Below are positions 55,259 to 63,279 of a DNA stretch of 64,000 nucleotides, piece after piece. The notes beneath the pieces were generated by a model that saw nothing but the letters and a program-made list of their open reading frames with translations, was not told the origin of the DNA and did not search any database. Numbering within the stretch: the stretch's first letter is position 1; each line of letters starts with the position of its first letter. The stretch comes from Meiothermus sp. (GTDB lineage Bacteria; Deinococcota; Deinococci; Deinococcales; Thermaceae), in NCBI RefSeq assembly GCF_025060375.1, contig NZ_JANXCG010000062.1, forward strand, positions 30,855 to 94,854. Direction: 5' to 3'. Made by a program: the position numbers and the translations under genes.

Positions 55259-55272
55259 TTCATAGGCATGAA
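55259..55272. promoter_or_regulatory. Candidate MarR operator overlapping its own start codon
   Basis: TTCAT-AGGC-ATGAA inverted repeat, with TAACAT (-10-like) at 55253-55258. Confidence 0.35.
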
Positions 55273-55717
55273 GTTTACATTGGACGAAATAATGGAGGAG
55301 ATGTGGCGCCTCTCCTCCCACCTGGCCTGGCAGATGCGCCTGGACCAGCAAAAGGCCCTTGAGGGGCTGGGGCTTTCACCCATGCAGGCCTTTGCCCTGA
55401 TGTGCGTGGCAAGCGGCATGGACCAGCCCTCGGCCCTGGCCTTCGTGATGGATGCCTCCCCCCAAGGGGTTTCCCAGCTCCTGGCGGGGTTGGAGGAGCG
55501 GAAGCTGGTGCGGCGCGAGCTAGACCCGGAGGACCGGCGGAAGGTGCGAATTCTCCTAACCCAAAGCGGGGAAAGGTTGCTCGAGGTCATGCGGGAAAAC
55601 TGGAAGCAGGTCTCGTGCGAGCGCTTCAGCCGGCTCAGCCCTGAGGAGCTGGAGATGTTGCTGAGGAGCTACCGAAAACTGATTGAGCCTAGGGAAAAGG
55701 GCACGGCACAACCATGA
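55268..55717 (+). CDS. MarR-family regulator of the efflux operon
   Basis: GLSPMQAFAL, VSQLLAGLEERKLVRR and DRRKVRILLTQSG. Confidence 0.9.
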   Translation: MKFTLDEIMEEMWRLSSHLAWQMRLDQQKALEGLGLSPMQAFALMCVASGMDQPSALAFVMDASPQGVSQLLAGLEERKLVRRELDPEDRRKVRILLTQSGERLLEVMRENWKQVSCERFSRLSPEELEMLLRSYRKLIEPREKGTAQP

Positions 55718-57012
55718 GGCACCCCATCCTGATCCCCCTCGTGCTCTTTGGGAGCTTATCCCTCGGGCAGGGTTTCTTTGCCCCGCTGGAAAACCACCCC
55801 AGCCTGTTGCAAGCCCGGCTCAACCTCGAGGCAGCCCAAGCCCAGCTGAGGGCGGTCCAAAGCCCCCTGAGCGTGCAGGCCCAAGGGGGCCTTTCCCTCT
55901 TTGAGACCTCCCCACCCCCTGGCCCCCCTGTCTGCCCCAACCCCCTGAACCCCCAGTGCCTGGAGCTGCCCAGCGACGCCCGGCAGATCACCCTGGGGCT
56001 GACCCTTACCCCCTTCCCCTTTGGGGATGTGGCCGACGCGGTCAACCAAGCCGCCCTGGGGGTGGCCCAGGCCGAGCTAGGGCTGAAGCAGGCCCGAACC
56101 CAGCTCCAGGCCCAGGCGGTGGAGGCCGCCTACCGGGTGCGGCTGGCAGAAGGGGGGCTCGAGGTGGCCCGGCTGGCGGTGCGGGTGGCCCAGGCCGGCC
56201 TGGAAGCCGTTCGGTTACGGACCCAGCGGGGGGCGGCCAGCCCCAGCGAGCTCCGGCAAGCCGAGGCCAACCTGCGCCAGGCGGCCCTGCAGCAAGCCGA
56301 GGCCGAGCGAAACCTGGCGCTGGCTCGGAAAAACCTGGCCGACCTGATCGGCAGCGAAAGGGCCGAGCCCCCTGCCCTGCCCCTTCCCCCAGAGACCACC
56401 CCGCCCCAGGTGCGCCAGGCTGAGCTCCAGCTCGCCAACGCTCAGATAGGCTACGACCGGGCGCTCAGGGGCGTCCTCCCCGTGCTGCAGGGAAGCTACA
56501 CCCGCAACATCTCCAACCAAGAGGCCTGGAGCATCTCCCTCAACTCCCGGACCTTGCAGCCCAGCCTCAGCTACACCCACCAGTCCCAAGGGCGCACCCC
56601 ACCCCAGGACCGCATCCAGGGCACCTTTCAGATCGGGCTCTCAGCCAACATCTCGTTCGGCGTGCTGGAAGCCTTGGAGGCCGCGCGCAAGCAGGTGGAG
56701 GCAGCCCAGCAAGCCCTGGAAGCGGCCCAGCGCAACAGCCGGCTGCAGCTCGAGCTGCTCAAGACCGCCCTGCAGACTGCTGAGCAGAACCTGGAAAACG
56801 CCCGCAGCGCTCTAAAGGATGCTGAGCAAAGCCTAAGCGAGGCCAAGGAGCGAGAGCGTCTGGGCCTTACCAGTCCACTGGCCACCCTTCAGGCTGAGCT
56901 GAGCTTGGCCCAGGCTCGGCTGGGGGTGGAGCAGGCCACGCTGGGCCGCATCCAGCGCATCCTCGACCTCTACCGCTTCTACGCCCTGCCCCCAAGCGAG
57001 GTGACCCCATGA
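55714..57012 (+). CDS. TolC-family outer-membrane factor 1 (beta-strand-rich)
   Basis: Two OEP repeats (HPSLLQARLNLEAA..; ERLGLTSPLATLQAEL) with beta-like segments after each Pro. Confidence 0.8.
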   Translation: MRHPILIPLVLFGSLSLGQGFFAPLENHPSLLQARLNLEAAQAQLRAVQSPLSVQAQGGLSLFETSPPPGPPVCPNPLNPQCLELPSDARQITLGLTLTPFPFGDVADAVNQAALGVAQAELGLKQARTQLQAQAVEAAYRVRLAEGGLEVARLAVRVAQAGLEAVRLRTQRGAASPSELRQAEANLRQAALQQAEAERNLALARKNLADLIGSERAEPPALPLPPETTPPQVRQAELQLANAQIGYDRALRGVLPVLQGSYTRNISNQEAWSISLNSRTLQPSLSYTHQSQGRTPPQDRIQGTFQIGLSANISFGVLEALEAARKQVEAAQQALEAAQRNSRLQLELLKTALQTAEQNLENARSALKDAEQSLSEAKERERLGLTSPLATLQAELSLAQARLGVEQATLGRIQRILDLYRFYALPPSEVTP

Positions 57013-57998
57013 AACCTGCAAAACCCATCTTTCTGCTCTTGAGCCTGTTCTCTCCCCTAGCCCTGTCCCAGGGCCTAACCCTGGAAAGCGCCCTTGCCAA
57101 AGCCAGCGAGCAGGCCCCGGTGCGGGCCGCCCAGGTGGAGCTGGAGGACGCCAAGGCCAACCTGCAACGCACCCTGGCCGACCCCCTTCTGACCCGGCCA
57201 TCGCGCCTTCAGGCCGAGCAACGCCAGGCCCTCGCCCAAGCCAACTACGAGCGGTCCTTGGCCCAGGCCCAAAGCAGCATCGTGGGGGCCTACACCCAGG
57301 TACTCGAAGCCCAGCTCCAGGTGCGCCTGGCCCAAAAAGCGCTGGAAATCGCCGCGCGGGGGCTCGAGGTGGCCCAAATCCGTCAGCGAAACGGCTCCGG
57401 CACCGCCCTGGACGTGCGCAACGCGCAAAATCGGCTGGAAGACGCCAGGAGCAACCTGAGCCGGGCCGAAAATGGGCTGGCCCTGGCCCAAAGCTCCCTG
57501 CGCAGCCTGGTGGGGCCTTTTGGTGGGCTCTCTCCCCTGCCCGCCCCTCCCGCCTTACCCGAACGGGGCCTGCTGAGGGAACTCTTGGAGAAAAGCCCCG
57601 ACCTGCTGCAGGCCCGGCAGAGGCTCGAGCTGGCCCAGCTGCAGGTGGAGTTGCTCGACCCAAGCTACGCCGCCCCAGCCGAAATTGAGGCCGCCAAGGC
57701 GCGGGCTGAACAGGCCGCCGCCGCCGCGCGGGAACTGGAGCGGGGCCTCGGGCTCCAGTACGACTCGCTTTACCAGAACCTTGAGGCCGCGGCCCGGAGC
57801 CTGAGCGTCCAGCAAACCGCCCTGGCCAACGCCCGGGAAACCCTCTCCAGCGAGAGAAAGCGGCTCGAGGCTGGTCTCATCAGCCAGCTCGCCTACCTCC
57901 AGGCCGAGCTCAGCTACCTCCAGGCCGAGCTGGCGGTCCAGCAGGCTCTGGGGAACTACTGGCGGGCCTACTACAGCTTGCGGGCAGGAGGGCGCTGA
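57009..57998 (+). CDS. TolC-like protein 2, short (329 aa), apparently without beta-barrel strands
   Basis: OEP helical repeats (LTLESAL; GSGTALDVRNAQ; SPDLLQARQRL; AGLISQLAYLQAE) joined by short Pro-containing turns. Confidence 0.75.
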   Translation: MKPAKPIFLLLSLFSPLALSQGLTLESALAKASEQAPVRAAQVELEDAKANLQRTLADPLLTRPSRLQAEQRQALAQANYERSLAQAQSSIVGAYTQVLEAQLQVRLAQKALEIAARGLEVAQIRQRNGSGTALDVRNAQNRLEDARSNLSRAENGLALAQSSLRSLVGPFGGLSPLPAPPALPERGLLRELLEKSPDLLQARQRLELAQLQVELLDPSYAAPAEIEAAKARAEQAAAAARELERGLGLQYDSLYQNLEAAARSLSVQQTALANARETLSSERKRLEAGLISQLAYLQAELSYLQAELAVQQALGNYWRAYYSLRAGGR

Positions 57999-59215
57999 TG
58001 CGGGGCTGGGCAGGTCTGATGGTGGGGGTTCTGGCGCTGGCCCTTTTGGCGGGGTGTGGCCCTCGCCGGGGTGCCCAAAACGAAGCCAACAACCCCAGTG
58101 AGGCCCCGGCCAGCCGGGTAAAGGTCCGGGTGGTCGAGGCCCAAAGCGGGCGGCTTAGCATAAGCCGCACCACAGGGGCCACCTTGATCCCGACCCGCGA
58201 GAGCCAGGTGGGGGCCACCGCAGGCGGCAAGGTGCTCGCTGTGCTGGTGCAGGCAGGCAGCCAGGTGGCAGCGGGCCAGGTGGTGTTGCGGCTCGACCCA
58301 GTAAACGCCCAAACCACCCTGCGCAACGCTGAAATTGCCCTGGAGCAGGCCCGGGTGAACCTGGCTCGAGCCGAGCGGTCCACCGCCGGCTCCCTGGCCC
58401 CCCTGCAGGCCAGCCTGGAATCCGCCCTGGCCAACCTGCGGGCCGCTGAGCAGCGCTACCAAGAGGGGAAGCAGCTCTTTGCCGCCGGGGCCATCGCCCA
58501 AGTGGAGCTGGTGGGGCTCGAGGCGGCCTACAACCAGGCCAAAGCCGCGGCCGACAACGCCCGGGAAAACCTAGCCCGGGCCCAGCGGGCCTCCCAGGAG
58601 GACCTGGCCCTGCTGCGCCTGCAGGTACGCCAGGCCGAGAACCAGCTCGCCCAGGCCAAAAGGGCCTTGGCCGACACCGAGGTGCGGGCGCCCTTCGCCG
58701 GGGTGGTGGCCGAGGTCTACGTGAACCCCGGTGAGTTCGTGGCCGCCGGGCAGCGGGTCTTCCGGCTGGCCGATACCCGCCGGCTTGAGGCCCGCTTCCG
58801 GCTGCCTCCCGAGGAGGCCGCCGCGCTGCCCCTGGGTACCCTTCTGAACCTGAGCTACGGCGAGCAGACCTACACCGCCCGCCTCACCCGCAGCAGCCAG
58901 GTGCCTGGCACCGACCGGCTGGTGGAGCTCACCGCCCAGGTGGAGGGCAACCCCCCACCTGGGGTCAGCGTCCAGGTCCGCTACACCCTGACCCTGGCCG
59001 AGGGAATCCTGCTGCCCGCAGGGGCCCTCCGCACCGAGGGCCGGACCACCTTCCTGTACGTGGTCCAGGAGGAAAGGGCGGTGCGCACCCCGGTGCGGGT
59101 GGTGGGCGACAGCGGGGCCCAGGTGGTGGTGGAGGGGATAAGAGCAGGGGCCCAGGTGGTCTTTCCGGTGCCCTCGAGCCTGAGCGACGGGGATCGGGTG
59201 GAGGTGGTCCGGTGA
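57998..59215 (+). CDS. RND periplasmic adaptor (membrane fusion) lipoprotein
   Basis: LLAGC lipobox, long alpha hairpin and VRAPFAGVV lipoyl motif. Confidence 0.92.
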   Translation: MRGWAGLMVGVLALALLAGCGPRRGAQNEANNPSEAPASRVKVRVVEAQSGRLSISRTTGATLIPTRESQVGATAGGKVLAVLVQAGSQVAAGQVVLRLDPVNAQTTLRNAEIALEQARVNLARAERSTAGSLAPLQASLESALANLRAAEQRYQEGKQLFAAGAIAQVELVGLEAAYNQAKAAADNARENLARAQRASQEDLALLRLQVRQAENQLAQAKRALADTEVRAPFAGVVAEVYVNPGEFVAAGQRVFRLADTRRLEARFRLPPEEAAALPLGTLLNLSYGEQTYTARLTRSSQVPGTDRLVELTAQVEGNPPPGVSVQVRYTLTLAEGILLPAGALRTEGRTTFLYVVQEERAVRTPVRVVGDSGAQVVVEGIRAGAQVVFPVPSSLSDGDRVEVVR

Positions 59216-62200
59216 GGGAAAAGGCGGTCAACCCGGTCATCGAGTTCTTCGTGCGGCGCTTCGTCTTCTCCACGGCGGTCTTTCTGGCGCTGGTCCTCTT
59301 CGGCCTCATCTCCGGAAGCCGGGTGGGGGTAGACCTCCTGCCGCGCTTTGAGATACCGGTGGTTGCGGTCACCACCGCCTATCCCGGGGCCGGGCCAGAG
59401 GAGGTGGAGCAGCAGGTAAGCCGCCCCATAGAGGAGGCGGTCTCCACCCTCTCGGGCCTGGACCAGATCGCCTCGCTCTCCGGCGAGGGCTTCTCCCAGG
59501 TCATTGTTTCCTTTGAGTTCGGACAGGACATCAACCGGGTAGCCACCGACGTAGCCCAGCGGGTGGCCGCGGTGCGGGGCCAACTTCCCCGCGATGCCCA
59601 AGCCCCCGTGGTGCAGCGCTTTGACCCGGGTGCCGCACCCATCCTCTACATCGCCCTCTCGGCCGATGGGCGCGACCTGCGCGAGGTGGCCAGGTACGCC
59701 AACGACGTGCTCAAGCCCCGCCTTCAGCTCGTCGGTGGAGTAGCCGACGTGCAGGTACAAGGGGCCCCAGAGCGAGAGGTGCAGGTTCTGCTCGACCCTT
59801 ACAAGGTGGCGGCCTTCGGCCTCTCGCCCCAGCAGGTGGTGGGGGCCATCCAGGCCTCAGCCCTGGCGGTGCCCGCGGGCACCCAGGACGAGCAGGGGCA
59901 GCGCCTCCTCTTCACCCTGCGCAACACCCCCACCACCCCAGAGGAGGTAGGCCGCATCCTGGTAGACCCCGCCCGAGGCCTTGAGGTGCGCGACCTGGCC
60001 GTGGTGCGGGACACCCAGGCAGAGCCCACCCGCCTCACCCGCCTGAACGGCCAACCGGTCATCCCCCTAGCGGTGCGCAAGACCCCCGACTCCAATGCGG
60101 TGGCGGTAGCCCAGGGGGTGAAGCGCACCCTGGAGGAGGTACGGCTGCCCCCGGGCTACTCCGCCCAAATTGTCGGCGACACAACTATCTTCATCGAGAA
60201 CACCGCCCGGGACACCTTCCGCGAGGTGTTGCTGGTGGCCCTCATCGTCTCTCTGATCACCCTGGTCTTCCTCGGGAAGCTCAACTCGGTCTTCAGCGTG
60301 GTGCTGGCCATCCCCATCACCATGTCGGGGGCCCTCATCGTCTTCGGGTTACTGGGCTTCACCTTCAACATTATCAGCCTGCTGGCCCTGATTGTGGCGG
60401 TGGGCATTGTGGTCGACGACTCCATTGTGCTCTCCGAGAACATCGAGCGCTACCGCCAGATGGGCTACGACAACCTGCAGGCGGTGCTCAAAGGGGCCAC
60501 CGAGGTGCTCTCTGCGGTCTCAGCAGCCACCCTCTCCCTGCTGGCGGTTTTTCTGCCGATCAGCTTCCTGCCGGGCATCATCGGGGAGTTCTTCCGCCAG
60601 TTCGGGATTGTGCTGGCCGCGGCCATCGCGGTGAGCTGGCTCGAGGCCCTTTTCTTCCTCACCGTGCGGCTGGCCTACTTTCCCGACCCCGACCCACCGA
60701 GCTGGCCGCAGCTTGGGCGGCGCCTGCTGGGCTTGGGCGACGACCTGCGCTGGGGCCTGCGGCTGCACGTCTACCGGCAAAAGGACGCGGGCCTGGCCAA
60801 GCGTCTTTTCAACCTGCTCATCACCCCCCTCACCCTGGCCCTGGCCCCACTGCGGTGGGCCGCCTCGGTTTTGCTGGGGCTCGCGGGGGCCATCGCGGGC
60901 AGCCTGCATGGGGGCTCTGAACGGACGTTTCTGGCTCTGCGGGAGCTTTACGCCAGGAGCCTGGCGGCTGCCCTCAACAGAAGCGGGCTGGTCCTCCTGG
61001 TGGGCCTGGGGTTCTTCCTCAGCATCGGCTTCGTAGCCCCCCGCATCCCCTTCAACTTCACCCCCAAAAACGATAGTGGCCAGATCAACATTGACCTGAG
61101 CCTACCCAAAGGCACCGCCCTGTCCGAAACCAACGCCCTTACCCGGCGGTTGGAGGGGTGGCTCGGGCAGCGGCCGGAGGTCCAGGCCTTCCTGACCACG
61201 GTAGGTAGCTCGCAAAACCTGCTCGGCACCGGGAACCCCGAACGGGCCCGCATCGTGGTGGAGCTGGTGCCCAGGGAGGAGCGGCCCAACGTTTACGACC
61301 TAGCCCCCCTCTACCGCGAAGCGCTGGGTGCGCTCCTGACCGACCGGCCCGAAGCCGACCTGCGGGTCTCGGTGCCCGAGGGGGGCCCCGGCGGGGCTGC
61401 CGACTTGCAGTTCACCTTGACCGCACCCAACCCCCAGGTGCTGGAGGAGAAAAACCGGCTGGCCCTCCAGGTCCTGCGCAGCCTTCCCTACCTGAGCGAT
61501 GTGCGCAGCAGCCTCGAGGAAACCACCACCGAACGGGTGCTGGTGCCCGACCCAACCCGGCTCCAGGGCACAGGGCTCAGCCCAAACGACCTGGCCCAGA
61601 CCCTGCGCATCTACAACGCGGGCACCCGTGCCGCTAACCTGCGGGCAGGAGGCGATGACATACCCATCGTGGTACGGGCTGACCCGCGCTTCGTCCCCGA
61701 CCAGGCCAGCCTCCTCTCGCTGCCGGTAGCCGCCCCCGCCCTGCGCACTACCCTGCCCATCGGCAGCCTGGGCCAGTTTGAAACCCGCCAGACCCCAGCC
61801 CAGCTCGCCCGGACCAACCAGGCCTTTTCCGCCGGTATCAACGCCAACCGGACCCCTGGGGTGGAGCTGGGCATTCTGCAAATCTCCAACCTGGTGGAAG
61901 CTGAGCTAGAGAGGGCCGGTGTCCTTGGGGATGGGGTACAGCTGGAACGGCAAGGCTCGACGGCCTTCGTGGGCGACCTGGCCCGGAGTGCCCCCATCGC
62001 CTTTGGTCTGGCGCTTCTGCTCAACTTCCTGGTGATCTCGAGCCAGTTCAACACCTTCCGCTACCCCATTTACCTGCTCCTGCCGGTTCCTCTAGCCCTG
62101 GTGGGGGCCTTCTGGTTCCTGTACTTCTTCCAAAGTGGCCTGGACGTGGTCTCGGTCCTGGGGGTGGTCATCCTGATAGGCCTGGTGACCAAGAACGCCA

Positions 62201-62517
62201 TCCTGCTTCTGGACTTCGCAGTCCGAACAGCGCGGGAAAAGCCCCTCTACGAAGCGCTGGTGGAAGCCGGCCGGTTGCGTCTGCGCCCCATTCTGATGAC
62301 CACTCTCACCGTGCTCATGATCTCCATCCCCCTCATCGCTGCAGTTGGGGAGGGCTCGGAGTTCCGCCGGCCCTTGGGCATTATCATCCTCGGGGGGGTC
62401 TCGGTCTCCATGCTGCTCACCCTCTTCGTGGTTCCGGCCGCCTTCTACCTCTTTGAGCGCAAGCGCTACGAGCAGCTCCGCCTTCAAAACCAACCCTTTC
62501 CCGCCTCAACGGACTGA
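59212..62517 (+). CDS. RND efflux permease (AcrB/AcrD/AcrF family)
   Basis: YPGAGPEEVE, GIVVDDSIVLSENI, GLVTKNAILL and RLRPILMT. Confidence 0.95.
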   Translation: MREKAVNPVIEFFVRRFVFSTAVFLALVLFGLISGSRVGVDLLPRFEIPVVAVTTAYPGAGPEEVEQQVSRPIEEAVSTLSGLDQIASLSGEGFSQVIVSFEFGQDINRVATDVAQRVAAVRGQLPRDAQAPVVQRFDPGAAPILYIALSADGRDLREVARYANDVLKPRLQLVGGVADVQVQGAPEREVQVLLDPYKVAAFGLSPQQVVGAIQASALAVPAGTQDEQGQRLLFTLRNTPTTPEEVGRILVDPARGLEVRDLAVVRDTQAEPTRLTRLNGQPVIPLAVRKTPDSNAVAVAQGVKRTLEEVRLPPGYSAQIVGDTTIFIENTARDTFREVLLVALIVSLITLVFLGKLNSVFSVVLAIPITMSGALIVFGLLGFTFNIISLLALIVAVGIVVDDSIVLSENIERYRQMGYDNLQAVLKGATEVLSAVSAATLSLLAVFLPISFLPGIIGEFFRQFGIVLAAAIAVSWLEALFFLTVRLAYFPDPDPPSWPQLGRRLLGLGDDLRWGLRLHVYRQKDAGLAKRLFNLLITPLTLALAPLRWAASVLLGLAGAIAGSLHGGSERTFLALRELYARSLAAALNRSGLVLLVGLGFFLSIGFVAPRIPFNFTPKNDSGQINIDLSLPKGTALSETNALTRRLEGWLGQRPEVQAFLTTVGSSQNLLGTGNPERARIVVELVPREERPNVYDLAPLYREALGALLTDRPEADLRVSVPEGGPGGAADLQFTLTAPNPQVLEEKNRLALQVLRSLPYLSDVRSSLEETTTERVLVPDPTRLQGTGLSPNDLAQTLRIYNAGTRAANLRAGGDDIPIVVRADPRFVPDQASLLSLPVAAPALRTTLPIGSLGQFETRQTPAQLARTNQAFSAGINANRTPGVELGILQISNLVEAELERAGVLGDGVQLERQGSTAFVGDLARSAPIAFGLALLLNFLVISSQFNTFRYPIYLLLPVPLALVGAFWFLYFFQSGLDVVSVLGVVILIGLVTKNAILLLDFAVRTAREKPLYEALVEAGRLRLRPILMTTLTVLMISIPLIAAVGEGSEFRRPLGIIILGGVSVSMLLTLFVVPAAFYLFERKRYEQLRLQNQPFPASTD

Positions 62518-62526
62518 AGCGCCGCC

Positions 62527-63279
62527 ATGAAGCTCCGCAAACACCATGTTTTCTGGCTGGTCTTTTTCGGAGGACTGCTCCTTTTCGCCGGGGCCATGGT
62601 CTGGTACACCCGGCAAGCCCTAAGGCCCTACCCCGCAGCCCCCGAGGCCCGGGAGGCCCTCGCCTCTACCCCAGAGCTGGAGGTGCGCCCAACCGCGTAC
62701 GGATGGGTCTTCATACCCAGCCAACAGGTCAGAGCTGGGCTGGCCTTTTACCCAGGCGGACTGGTGGAGCCGGAAGCCTACGCCCCGGTGCTGCGCCGCA
62801 TCGCTCAGGCAGGCTACCGTGTGGCCCTGCTGCGGTTGCGCTACAACCTAGCGGTCACCGAGCAGGGTAAGGCCCGGCAGCCCATCGCTGAGGCCCCCGG
62901 GCTGCGCTGGGCGGTAGGGGGGCACAGCCTAGGGGGGGTGGTGGCCTCCAACTTTGCGGCCAGCAACCCGGCTGCCAAAGCCCTGGTGATGTGGGCGGCC
63001 TACCCCCTGAACGACCTCTCGAGCCTATCCCTCCCCACCCTAGCCCTCTTTGGGGAGAAAGACGGCCGCATTAGCCAGGAGCAGCTCGAGGCCCACAAGG
63101 GCAAATTCCCCCCAGCCACCCGATTCGTGGTCATACCCGGGCTCAACCACGCAAGCTTTGGCGCATACGGCCCCCAGCGAGGCGACAACCCTACGGCCCT
63201 TCCAAAGGAGACGGGTTGGGATCAGGTAGCCCAGCAAACGGTGGCCTTCCTAAACGAAGCACTGGGCACCCTCCCCTAG
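62527..63279 (+). CDS. Membrane-anchored alpha/beta hydrolase
   Basis: N-terminal TM helix, FYPGG, GHSLGG, GEKDG and GLNHASFG. Confidence 0.85.
   Translation: MKLRKHHVFWLVFFGGLLLFAGAMVWYTRQALRPYPAAPEAREALASTPELEVRPTAYGWVFIPSQQVRAGLAFYPGGLVEPEAYAPVLRRIAQAGYRVALLRLRYNLAVTEQGKARQPIAEAPGLRWAVGGHSLGGVVASNFAASNPAAKALVMWAAYPLNDLSSLSLPTLALFGEKDGRISQEQLEAHKGKFPPATRFVVIPGLNHASFGAYGPQRGDNPTALPKETGWDQVAQQTVAFLNEALGTLP

Follow-up and report, generated by a model that had tools for sequence, protein, structure and literature searches.

A stretch of 64,000 nucleotides of Meiothermus sp. DNA (contig NZ_JANXCG010000062.1; referred to here as the window) contains an efflux operon that encodes two TolC-like proteins in tandem, a long one of 432 amino acids (aa), designated L, and a short one of 329 aa, designated S, in contrast to the canonical tripartite resistance-nodulation-division (RND) operon, which has one gene of the outer-membrane factor (OMF) type. 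L is predicted to contribute six beta-strands per chain and S none, the pair recurs across the phylum Deinococcota, and residue covariation within S points to contact of S with S. We propose that the OMF of Deinococcota would comprise two separate homotrimers made from coupled paralogous genes, with L3 as the channel in the membrane and S3 stacked below to extend it into the periplasm, a reading in which our belief and our doubt are about evenly balanced.

Predicted folds of L and S

Single-chain AlphaFold2 (AF2) models of L and S were built on alignments of 47–48 homologues each. The two genes and the segments discussed below are located in the window as follows.

55714..57012, + strand: L, long TolC-like outer-membrane factor, 432 aa (PF02321, E=1.1e-34; AF2; Foldseek)
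55867..56007, + strand: L repeat 1 beta-hairpin, strands aa 52–62 and 88–98 (AF2 with DSSP; family alignment)
56227..56241, + strand: L periplasmic tip 1, aa 172–176, RGAASP (turn between helices 105–171 and 177–212; R169 invariant)
56482..56643, + strand: L repeat 2, strands aa 257–265, 270–277, 284–290, and 303–310 (AF2 with DSSP)
56860..56874, + strand: L periplasmic tip 2, aa 383–387, LGLTS (turn between helices 315–382 and 388–423; G384 and L385 invariant)
57009..57998, + strand: S, short barrel-less TolC-like protein, 329 aa (PF02321, E=1.9e-27; AF2; Foldseek)
57180..57194, + strand: S top turn 1, aa 58–62, DPLLT, replacing the repeat 1 beta-hairpin (AF2; D58 and P59 invariant)
57393..57404, + strand: S periplasmic tip 1, aa 129–132, GSGT (AF2; G129 invariant)
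57654..57674, + strand: S top turn 2, aa 216–222, LDPSYAA, replacing the repeat 2 hairpins (AF2; D217 invariant)
57870..57884, + strand: S periplasmic tip 2, aa 288–292, AGLIS (AF2; G289 invariant)

Both proteins carry a Sec signal peptide, without a lipobox Cys in L and without a lipobox in S. The AF2 model of L (predicted local distance difference test score, pLDDT, of 90.6) contains helices at aa 105–171, 177–212, 315–382, and 388–423 and, by DSSP, six beta-strands, two in repeat 1 and four in repeat 2. These are the same segments to which the first-pass annotation of this DNA had assigned about two strands around the sequence CPNPLNPQC and about four in the second repeat. The repeat 1 strands are separated by a 25-aa loop in which CPNPLNPQC supplies a conserved Cys pair, while repeat 2 has one hairpin beyond canonical TolC and a nearly invariant periplasmic turn, S-R-T-L-Q-P, with S278 and P283 invariant. 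A phylum-wide alignment conserves the 2+4 pattern, with segment lengths fixed in 277 L sequences and the first three repeat 2 strands of fixed length across the phylum; the pattern was present in all pairs examined.

The helical part of L is of TolC type, with two PF02321 (OEP) stretches (E=1.1e-34), and a Foldseek comparison of the model with the PDB returned only TolC-family chains (TM-scores of 0.6–0.7 to TolC, OprM, CmeC, and VceC; E-values down to 1e-17). The family is otherwise defined by four strands per protomer, for which AF2 gives six in L, and L falls short of the curated NCBIfam scores (46.7 bits for TIGR01844, cut-off 225; 51.3 bits for TIGR01845, cut-off 210).

The AF2 model of S (pLDDT 94.5) is all-helical, with zero strands and helices at aa 36–57, 63–128, 133–168, 197–215, 223–287, and 293–326, so modeled as to retain the full-length helical tunnel with a minimal equatorial part. 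Turns of five and seven residues stand where an outer-membrane beta-barrel would require hairpins, as the first-pass annotation had proposed. The annotation had also named structure prediction as the check that could overturn its account, and the models show no hairpins in S and six rather than four strands in L. The replacements are not peculiar to this protein: among 520 S-family sequences the lengths of top turns 1 and 2 are constant in 516 and 514, respectively, and those of the tips in 520 and 519. As in L, PF02321 is matched in two repeats (E=1.9e-27) with helix-turn-helix tips, and the structural matches of S in the PDB are confined to the TolC family (E-values down to 6e-10). The best NCBIfam match of S is TIGR01844, over aa 65–214, with a score of 67 bits as compared to 47 bits for L, both below the curated cut-off. 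Tip 1 of S carries the canonical TolC-type motif G-x-x-T-x-L-D-V, and on their sequences the tips of S appear to be more canonical TolC-type, adaptor-docking tips than those of L.

L and S are colinear paralogues with 34–41% identity in the long helices and predicted helix lengths that agree within 1–5 residues. The (S/D)-P junction residue found ahead of the strands in L and in Escherichia coli TolC is still present in the turns of S, and S thus looks like a clean deletion of the hairpins. A PDB search found no solved relative of either protein closer than E. coli TolC. If the models are correct, L and S each lack one defining feature of the TolC family, the four-strand protomer in the case of L and the membrane barrel in the case of S.

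Conservation of the pair

The pairing of L and S is obligate on a phylum-wide scale. Matches to an S-family profile, searched over 1.84 billion representative proteins, formed 137 clusters at 50% identity (E < 1e-30), nearly all of 325–375 aa and colinear with the query. S was matched in 134 of 151 Deinococcota genomes and 19 of 22 genera, and in the 17 genomes without S no L was found either. S lies directly 3′ of L in 108 of the 125 L matches listed; L is upstream of S in all 36 Meiothermus and Trueperaceae loci having enough flank and directly upstream in ∼178 of 195 loci from species genomes. In a few cases, all from Trueperaceae, S stands alone. Constant co-occurrence of the pair had been named as a check by the first-pass annotation, and apart from these rare loci the two genes strictly co-occur. 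A profile scan with a narrower alignment matched S in Meiothermus, Trueperaceae, and other Deinococcota only, a result that says nothing on other phyla.

The possibility that S is a decaying, functionless duplicate of L might be entertained because its membrane domain is absent and its scores fall below the curated NCBIfam cut-offs. We regard this as scarcely conceivable, given that S is conserved in 134 of 151 genomes and falls into at least 137 clusters at 50% identity, in which the lengths of turns and tips and certain residues are invariant, and that its frame is intact, with a signal peptide and translational coupling.

The pump that accompanies the pair is variable. RND pumps are found in Meiothermus, Thermus, and Deinococcus cellulosilyticus, a MacB-type ATP-binding cassette (ABC) pump in Truepera, and a major facilitator superfamily (MFS) pump with a 603-aa adaptor in Deinococcus alpinitundrae (L017:6001-12026); the pair also occurs as a pump-free orphan. 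Since pump type varies and L is constant, the fixed partner of S is L and no particular pump. The same Meiothermus genome contains a second, diverged pair (L′ and S′) with the same anatomy of 2+4 and zero strands and an ATGA overlap (contig C57, L013:6130-8588). Its frames of 471 and 348 aa lie alone between unrelated genes with no adjacent pump. On another contig (C73, L014:229-3823), a MacB-ABC system whose adaptor has 531 aa lacks a duct gene, and the orphan pair probably serves this system. No canonical single TolC gene was found in the Meiothermus genome.

Covariation within S

Covariation was analyzed in 475 non-identical S sequences (effective number of sequences, Neff80, of 265 at 80% identity), by a mean-field method and then by pseudolikelihood (plmDCA). 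The plmDCA couplings recovered all four intrachain hairpins in antiparallel register (H3–H4, H7–H8, H2–H3, and H6–H7), and the method thus works on the S family. Beyond the hairpins, two lateral interfaces emerged, H3 with H6/H8 and H7 with H2/H4. The pair V121–L294 (H3–H8) ranked first overall, and nine of eleven H3–H8 pairs lay at i+j = 407–416. The internal repeat offset of ∼160 predicts the second interface at the same i+j as the first, and the couplings complied: among the top 200, seven of ten H4×H7 pairs (binomial p = 1.6e-4) and three of three H2×H7 pairs (p = 5.5e-4) were in the predicted register. A protomer of the TolC fold has four helical columns arranged side by side, and its two edges, approximately three helices apart, cannot touch. 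Observation of both lateral interfaces therefore places one of them between chains, which implies that S would contact S on both lateral edges, consistent with a closed homo-oligomer, i.e., an all-S ring.

The first-pass annotation had suggested a different arrangement, a single heterotrimer of two L and one S in which 6 + 6 + 0 strands would form the canonical 12-strand barrel over a 12-helix tunnel. The complementary strand counts, the coupled and strictly co-occurring genes, the agreement of helix lengths within 1–5 residues, and the TolC-type tips kept in both proteins all speak for such an assembly, as does the precedent of MdtB2C among RND pumps (PMC8277102). However, S–S contact on both edges, as indicated by the in-register couplings (p = 1.6e-4 and 5.5e-4), is impossible with a single S; the heterotrimer also leaves unexplained why the S top and the S tips covary (see below), and stand-alone S genes occur. 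Together with the strand and linker geometry of L, the covariation disfavors the heterotrimer, which we consider quite unlikely.

The evidence for the all-S ring has its limits. Couplings of the second interface (0.04–0.058) are smaller than that of the best pair of the first (0.133), and a weak, indirect S–S correlation could in principle be relayed by an unobserved L if the complex were a heterotrimer. The in-register couplings of the second interface are nonetheless similar in size to most first-interface couplings. Covariation of L alone (244 sequences, Neff 136) recovered the known hairpins poorly and carried too much noise to reveal an L–S contact of either kind. Joint L/S covariation (162 pairs, Neff 102), with columns drawn from the top and tip of S and from the tips and periplasmic strand ends of L, remained at noise level in all blocks and bears on neither model; when subsampled to the joint depth, S also loses its lateral signals. 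Heptad insertions and deletions were considered as a test for a shared ring, in which the helices of L and S would have to change length in concert, and proved uninformative, as helix lengths are constant in all pairs examined and extra length is terminal only.

A further, unexpected signal connects the two ends of S. Couplings between top turns and tips, ∼100 Å apart, were approximately 2-fold enriched, while intermediate distances were depleted (0.3–0.7-fold). Among the top 300 couplings, 31 were top–tip pairs (≥85 Å apart along the tube) versus approximately nine expected at the intermediate-distance noise, i.e., three to four times noise. The coupled regions are R54–R72 and Q212–E225 at the top and V121–V136 and T278–L294 at the tips; top turn 1 covaries with tip residues 129–131, and top turn 2 with 121–130 and 288–292. 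The excess recurs in each of the two main subfamilies analyzed apart, with recurring pairs that include S130–L215/L216/P218, T62–S130/G131, I124–Y220, and P218–L290. Covariation of ends so far apart suggests that the top of S may dock onto TolC-type tips. Counting against this interpretation, the same pattern could arise, without contact, if paralogous systems had diversified two specificity surfaces together. A position of the S top just beneath the strands of an adjacent L would lead one to expect neither contact nor co-diversification.

Strand geometry of L

The AF2 strands of L are 7–11 aa long, with helix-to-strand linkers of 2–6 residues, as compared to strands of ∼13–15 aa in E. coli TolC. 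By standard barrel relations, strands as short as those of L cross the membrane only at a tilt of ∼37°, at which the barrel radius is ∼10.6 Å for 12 strands and ∼16 Å for 18, the latter approaching that of the TolC tunnel. A trimer of L would thus accommodate 18 strands without strain, and on the predicted strands L3 would form an 18-strand barrel. In contrast, the heterotrimer would place a two-fold beta-barrel on a three-fold helical barrel; its two L copies must differ, with strand blocks displaced by ∼60° (∼17 Å) and only 2–6 linker residues at hand, and strands of 7–9 residues would be too short for the steep tilt of a 12-strand barrel of TolC radius. Two points count against the 18-strand barrel: the argument depends on AF2 strand boundaries and standard barrel-geometry formulae, and it leaves the numerical fit 6 + 6 + 0 = 12 as an unexplained coincidence.

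Proposed assembly

In the proposed assembly, L3 would provide a 12-helix TolC-like tunnel topped by 3 × 6 = 18 short, weakly tilted strands. S3 would be a Sec-exported, soluble tube of 12 helices, ∼10 nm (∼100 Å) long, that never enters the membrane. At its lower end, the TolC-type helix-turn-helix tips would dock tip-to-tip on the six hairpins of an adaptor hexamer, and at its upper end a ring of six alpha-hairpin turns with invariant D-P motifs, resembling the top of an adaptor hexamer, would dock on the tips of L3 or possibly on those of another S3. The order of the conduit would then be L3, one or more S3, a hexamer of the membrane fusion protein (MFP) adaptor, and an RND, ABC, or MFS pump, a lengthened duct that would span the very wide periplasm of Deinococcota. 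Because S is genetically tied to L and has the more canonical adaptor-docking tips, the stack L3/S3/MFP6 is the most economical order. Extension of the conduit by the barrel-less protein had been the second suggestion of the first-pass annotation; the covarying ends of S and the wide periplasm favor this idea.

Thermus thermophilus has a periplasm ∼70 nm in width and a PilQ channel elongated to ∼35 nm (PMC4463427). In Deinococcus radiodurans, the periplasm measures 121 nm, and the peptidoglycan begins at a depth of 30 nm beneath the outer membrane (PMC9388160). An objection to the stack is that one S3 adds only ∼10 nm, far below 70–121 nm, which would call for a local narrowing of the envelope at pumps or for several S3 stacked head-to-tail. 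In the latter case, S3 units would be modular pipe segments of a variable-length tube, ∼4 in Thermus and ∼9 in D. radiodurans. Such stacking would explain the top–tip covariation of S directly, and we nevertheless judge it distinctly improbable. It also tells against the L3–S3 stack that L3, S3, and their contact are all deduced from sequences and single-chain models.

S3 might alternatively be a soluble trimer that is not part of a conduit, serving as a cap or plug of idle L3 or pumps, as an assembly factor for L, or as an anchor of the duct in the thick cell wall. The S–S contacts and the inability of one S3 to bridge 70–121 nm (PMC4463427, PMC9388160) speak for it, some S homologues have extra terminal domains or linkers that could bind the wall, and gating might be required of an L whose barrel has 18 strands. 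Difficult to reconcile with it are the full-length open-tunnel architecture and the conservation of canonical adaptor-docking tips, as strict as in genuine ducts (G129 and G289; lengths constant in 520/520 and 519/520), since a plug or chaperone needs no 100-Å tunnel of 12 helices; in addition, the top–tip covariation points to end-on docking. We rate a role outside the conduit as unlikely. The remaining probability falls to other arrangements.

Relation to known systems

Descriptions of tripartite pumps and type I secretion systems give three components, among them a single homotrimeric duct of TolC type whose barrel has 12 strands. The TolC, OprM, and CusC factors (PF02321; TIGR01844 and TIGR01845) resemble L and S in their two-repeat protomer and in tips with conserved Gly. 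The helices of L and S (65–68 residues paired with 34–36) are as in TolC, and the genes of the known factors likewise lie with those for an adaptor and a pump of the RND, ABC, or MFS type. These factors provide the sole structural matches in the PDB. Solved OMFs are, in contrast, single-gene homotrimers with four long strands per chain in a 12-strand barrel, as compared to six short strands predicted for L; S differs further in that with zero strands it cannot be a membrane protein. NCBIfam scores of 47–67 bits against cut-offs of 210–225 and two genes where TolC-type ducts use one set the pair apart from this family.

The hexamers of adaptors such as AcrA, MacA, and MexA are established to dock tip-to-tip on TolC tips through alpha-hairpins (reviewed in PMC8277102). 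The proposed top of S3, a 12-helix barrel as wide as TolC that ends in six alpha-hairpin turns, would be reminiscent of this adaptor ring and might dock in the same manner. It shares no sequence similarity with adaptor tips and lacks an RLS motif; S is a TolC paralogue and not a member of the adaptor family. Adjacent paralogous genes that yield a 2:1 heterotrimer in a tripartite pump are known from MdtB2C (cited in PMC8277102), the only heterotrimer mentioned in that comprehensive review, where it is the RND component. MdtB2C is an inner-membrane component, and the covariation of S argues against S being mixed into the L ring. PilQ of T. thermophilus, a secretin with extra periplasmic rings, belongs to an unrelated family and is an envelope-spanning machine from the same phylum that is also lengthened; in PilQ, extra domains in one chain account for the length, whereas here it would come from a separate paralogous ring.

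A literature search found no description of L–S pairing, of a TolC paralogue without a barrel, of a heteromeric OMF, or of an OMF barrel enlarged to 18 strands or otherwise, and databases label both proteins merely as "TolC family protein". A phylum that includes the models T. thermophilus and D. radiodurans appears to use another solution, a duct with an enlarged strand number and an obligatory, secreted, barrel-less paralogue that most likely builds a separate periplasmic tube. If confirmed, S would represent a fourth component class for tripartite pumps and would begin to explain, in molecular terms, how a periplasm two to four times as wide as the pump is crossed in efflux and secretion. 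It would also be a soluble TolC tunnel of natural origin, of use to structural biologists and engineers. Stacking of S3, if true, would constitute a new principle of trans-envelope conduits, by which a standard pump reaches an outer membrane 70–120 nm away.

Variation among homologous loci

The stand-alone S-type genes of Trueperaceae (L132:19-1083 on the − strand, and L020/L134) lack an upstream L gene over a distance of 1.6 kb; a gene for a Yip1-like membrane protein precedes one of them, and a NorB-like oxidase gene precedes another. The 603-aa adaptor of D. alpinitundrae has duplicated barrel-sandwich and beta-barrel domains, making it a double-length MFP. At the Trueperaceae locus L016:6001-9005, the long partner (606 aa) bears a ∼190-aa N-terminal Q/E/A-rich coiled-coil extension after the signal peptide, which could extend along the outer face of a stacked ring, and the short partner (395 aa) has a ∼60-aa disordered C-terminal tail. 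Three short barrel-less family members (P0252, P0344, and P0217) contain extra parts, one a 270-aa Pro/Asp-rich N-terminal linker, one a ∼170-aa C-terminal beta-rich domain, and one a Gln-rich N terminus, which could be wall-binding or spacer modules. The search of representative proteins also returned P0314, a protein of 1246 aa with three tandem complete CzcC/CusC-like OMF protomers in one chain, which by its sequence would be a natural single-chain TolC trimer. Candidate natural L–S fusions were rejected, as the long open frames were alternative-frame artifacts of GC-rich DNA.

Operon and neighboring genes

L and S are the second and third of five + strand genes at 55268-62517, in the order MarR, L, S, MFP, and RND (from the open reading frame list, Pfam, and NCBIfam). 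Adaptor lipoprotein, RND permease, OMF, and local repressor, the elements of a tripartite RND efflux operon, are found together. Homologues likewise mark the organism as a Meiothermus. The genes outside the pair are located as follows.

55268..55717, + strand: MarR-family repressor gene, first in the operon (Pfam MarR_2, E=1.9e-10; ATGA overlap with L)
57998..59215, + strand: periplasmic adaptor (MFP) lipoprotein, 405 aa (TIGR01730, E=7e-46; HlyD_3 and HlyD_D23; N-terminal sequence)
59212..62517, + strand: RND inner-membrane pump, 1101 aa (PF00873, E=2.7e-205; NF033617)
62527-63279, + strand: alpha/beta-hydrolase gene, 10 bp 3′ of the RND gene

Junctions overlap throughout (ATGA for MarR/L and L/S, TGATG for S/MFP, and GTGA for MFP/RND), and the five genes are thus one translationally coupled operon. 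The ATGA overlap of L and S and their place directly upstream of the MFP and RND genes agree with the first-pass annotation in junctions and coordinates alike. A MarR gene holds the same first place in the Thermus, D. cellulosilyticus, and Trueperaceae loci. The adaptor has a lipobox, LLAGC, and a long alpha-hairpin. The 1101-aa RND protein matches the AcrB family model in two stretches, and an insertion of ∼80 residues after transmembrane segment 6 (∼aa 490–580) lies outside the coverage of that model. The alpha/beta-hydrolase gene may be a conserved sixth member of the operon. At the Thermus locus L015, a hydrolase gene (Pfam Abhydrolase_5) occupies the equivalent place.

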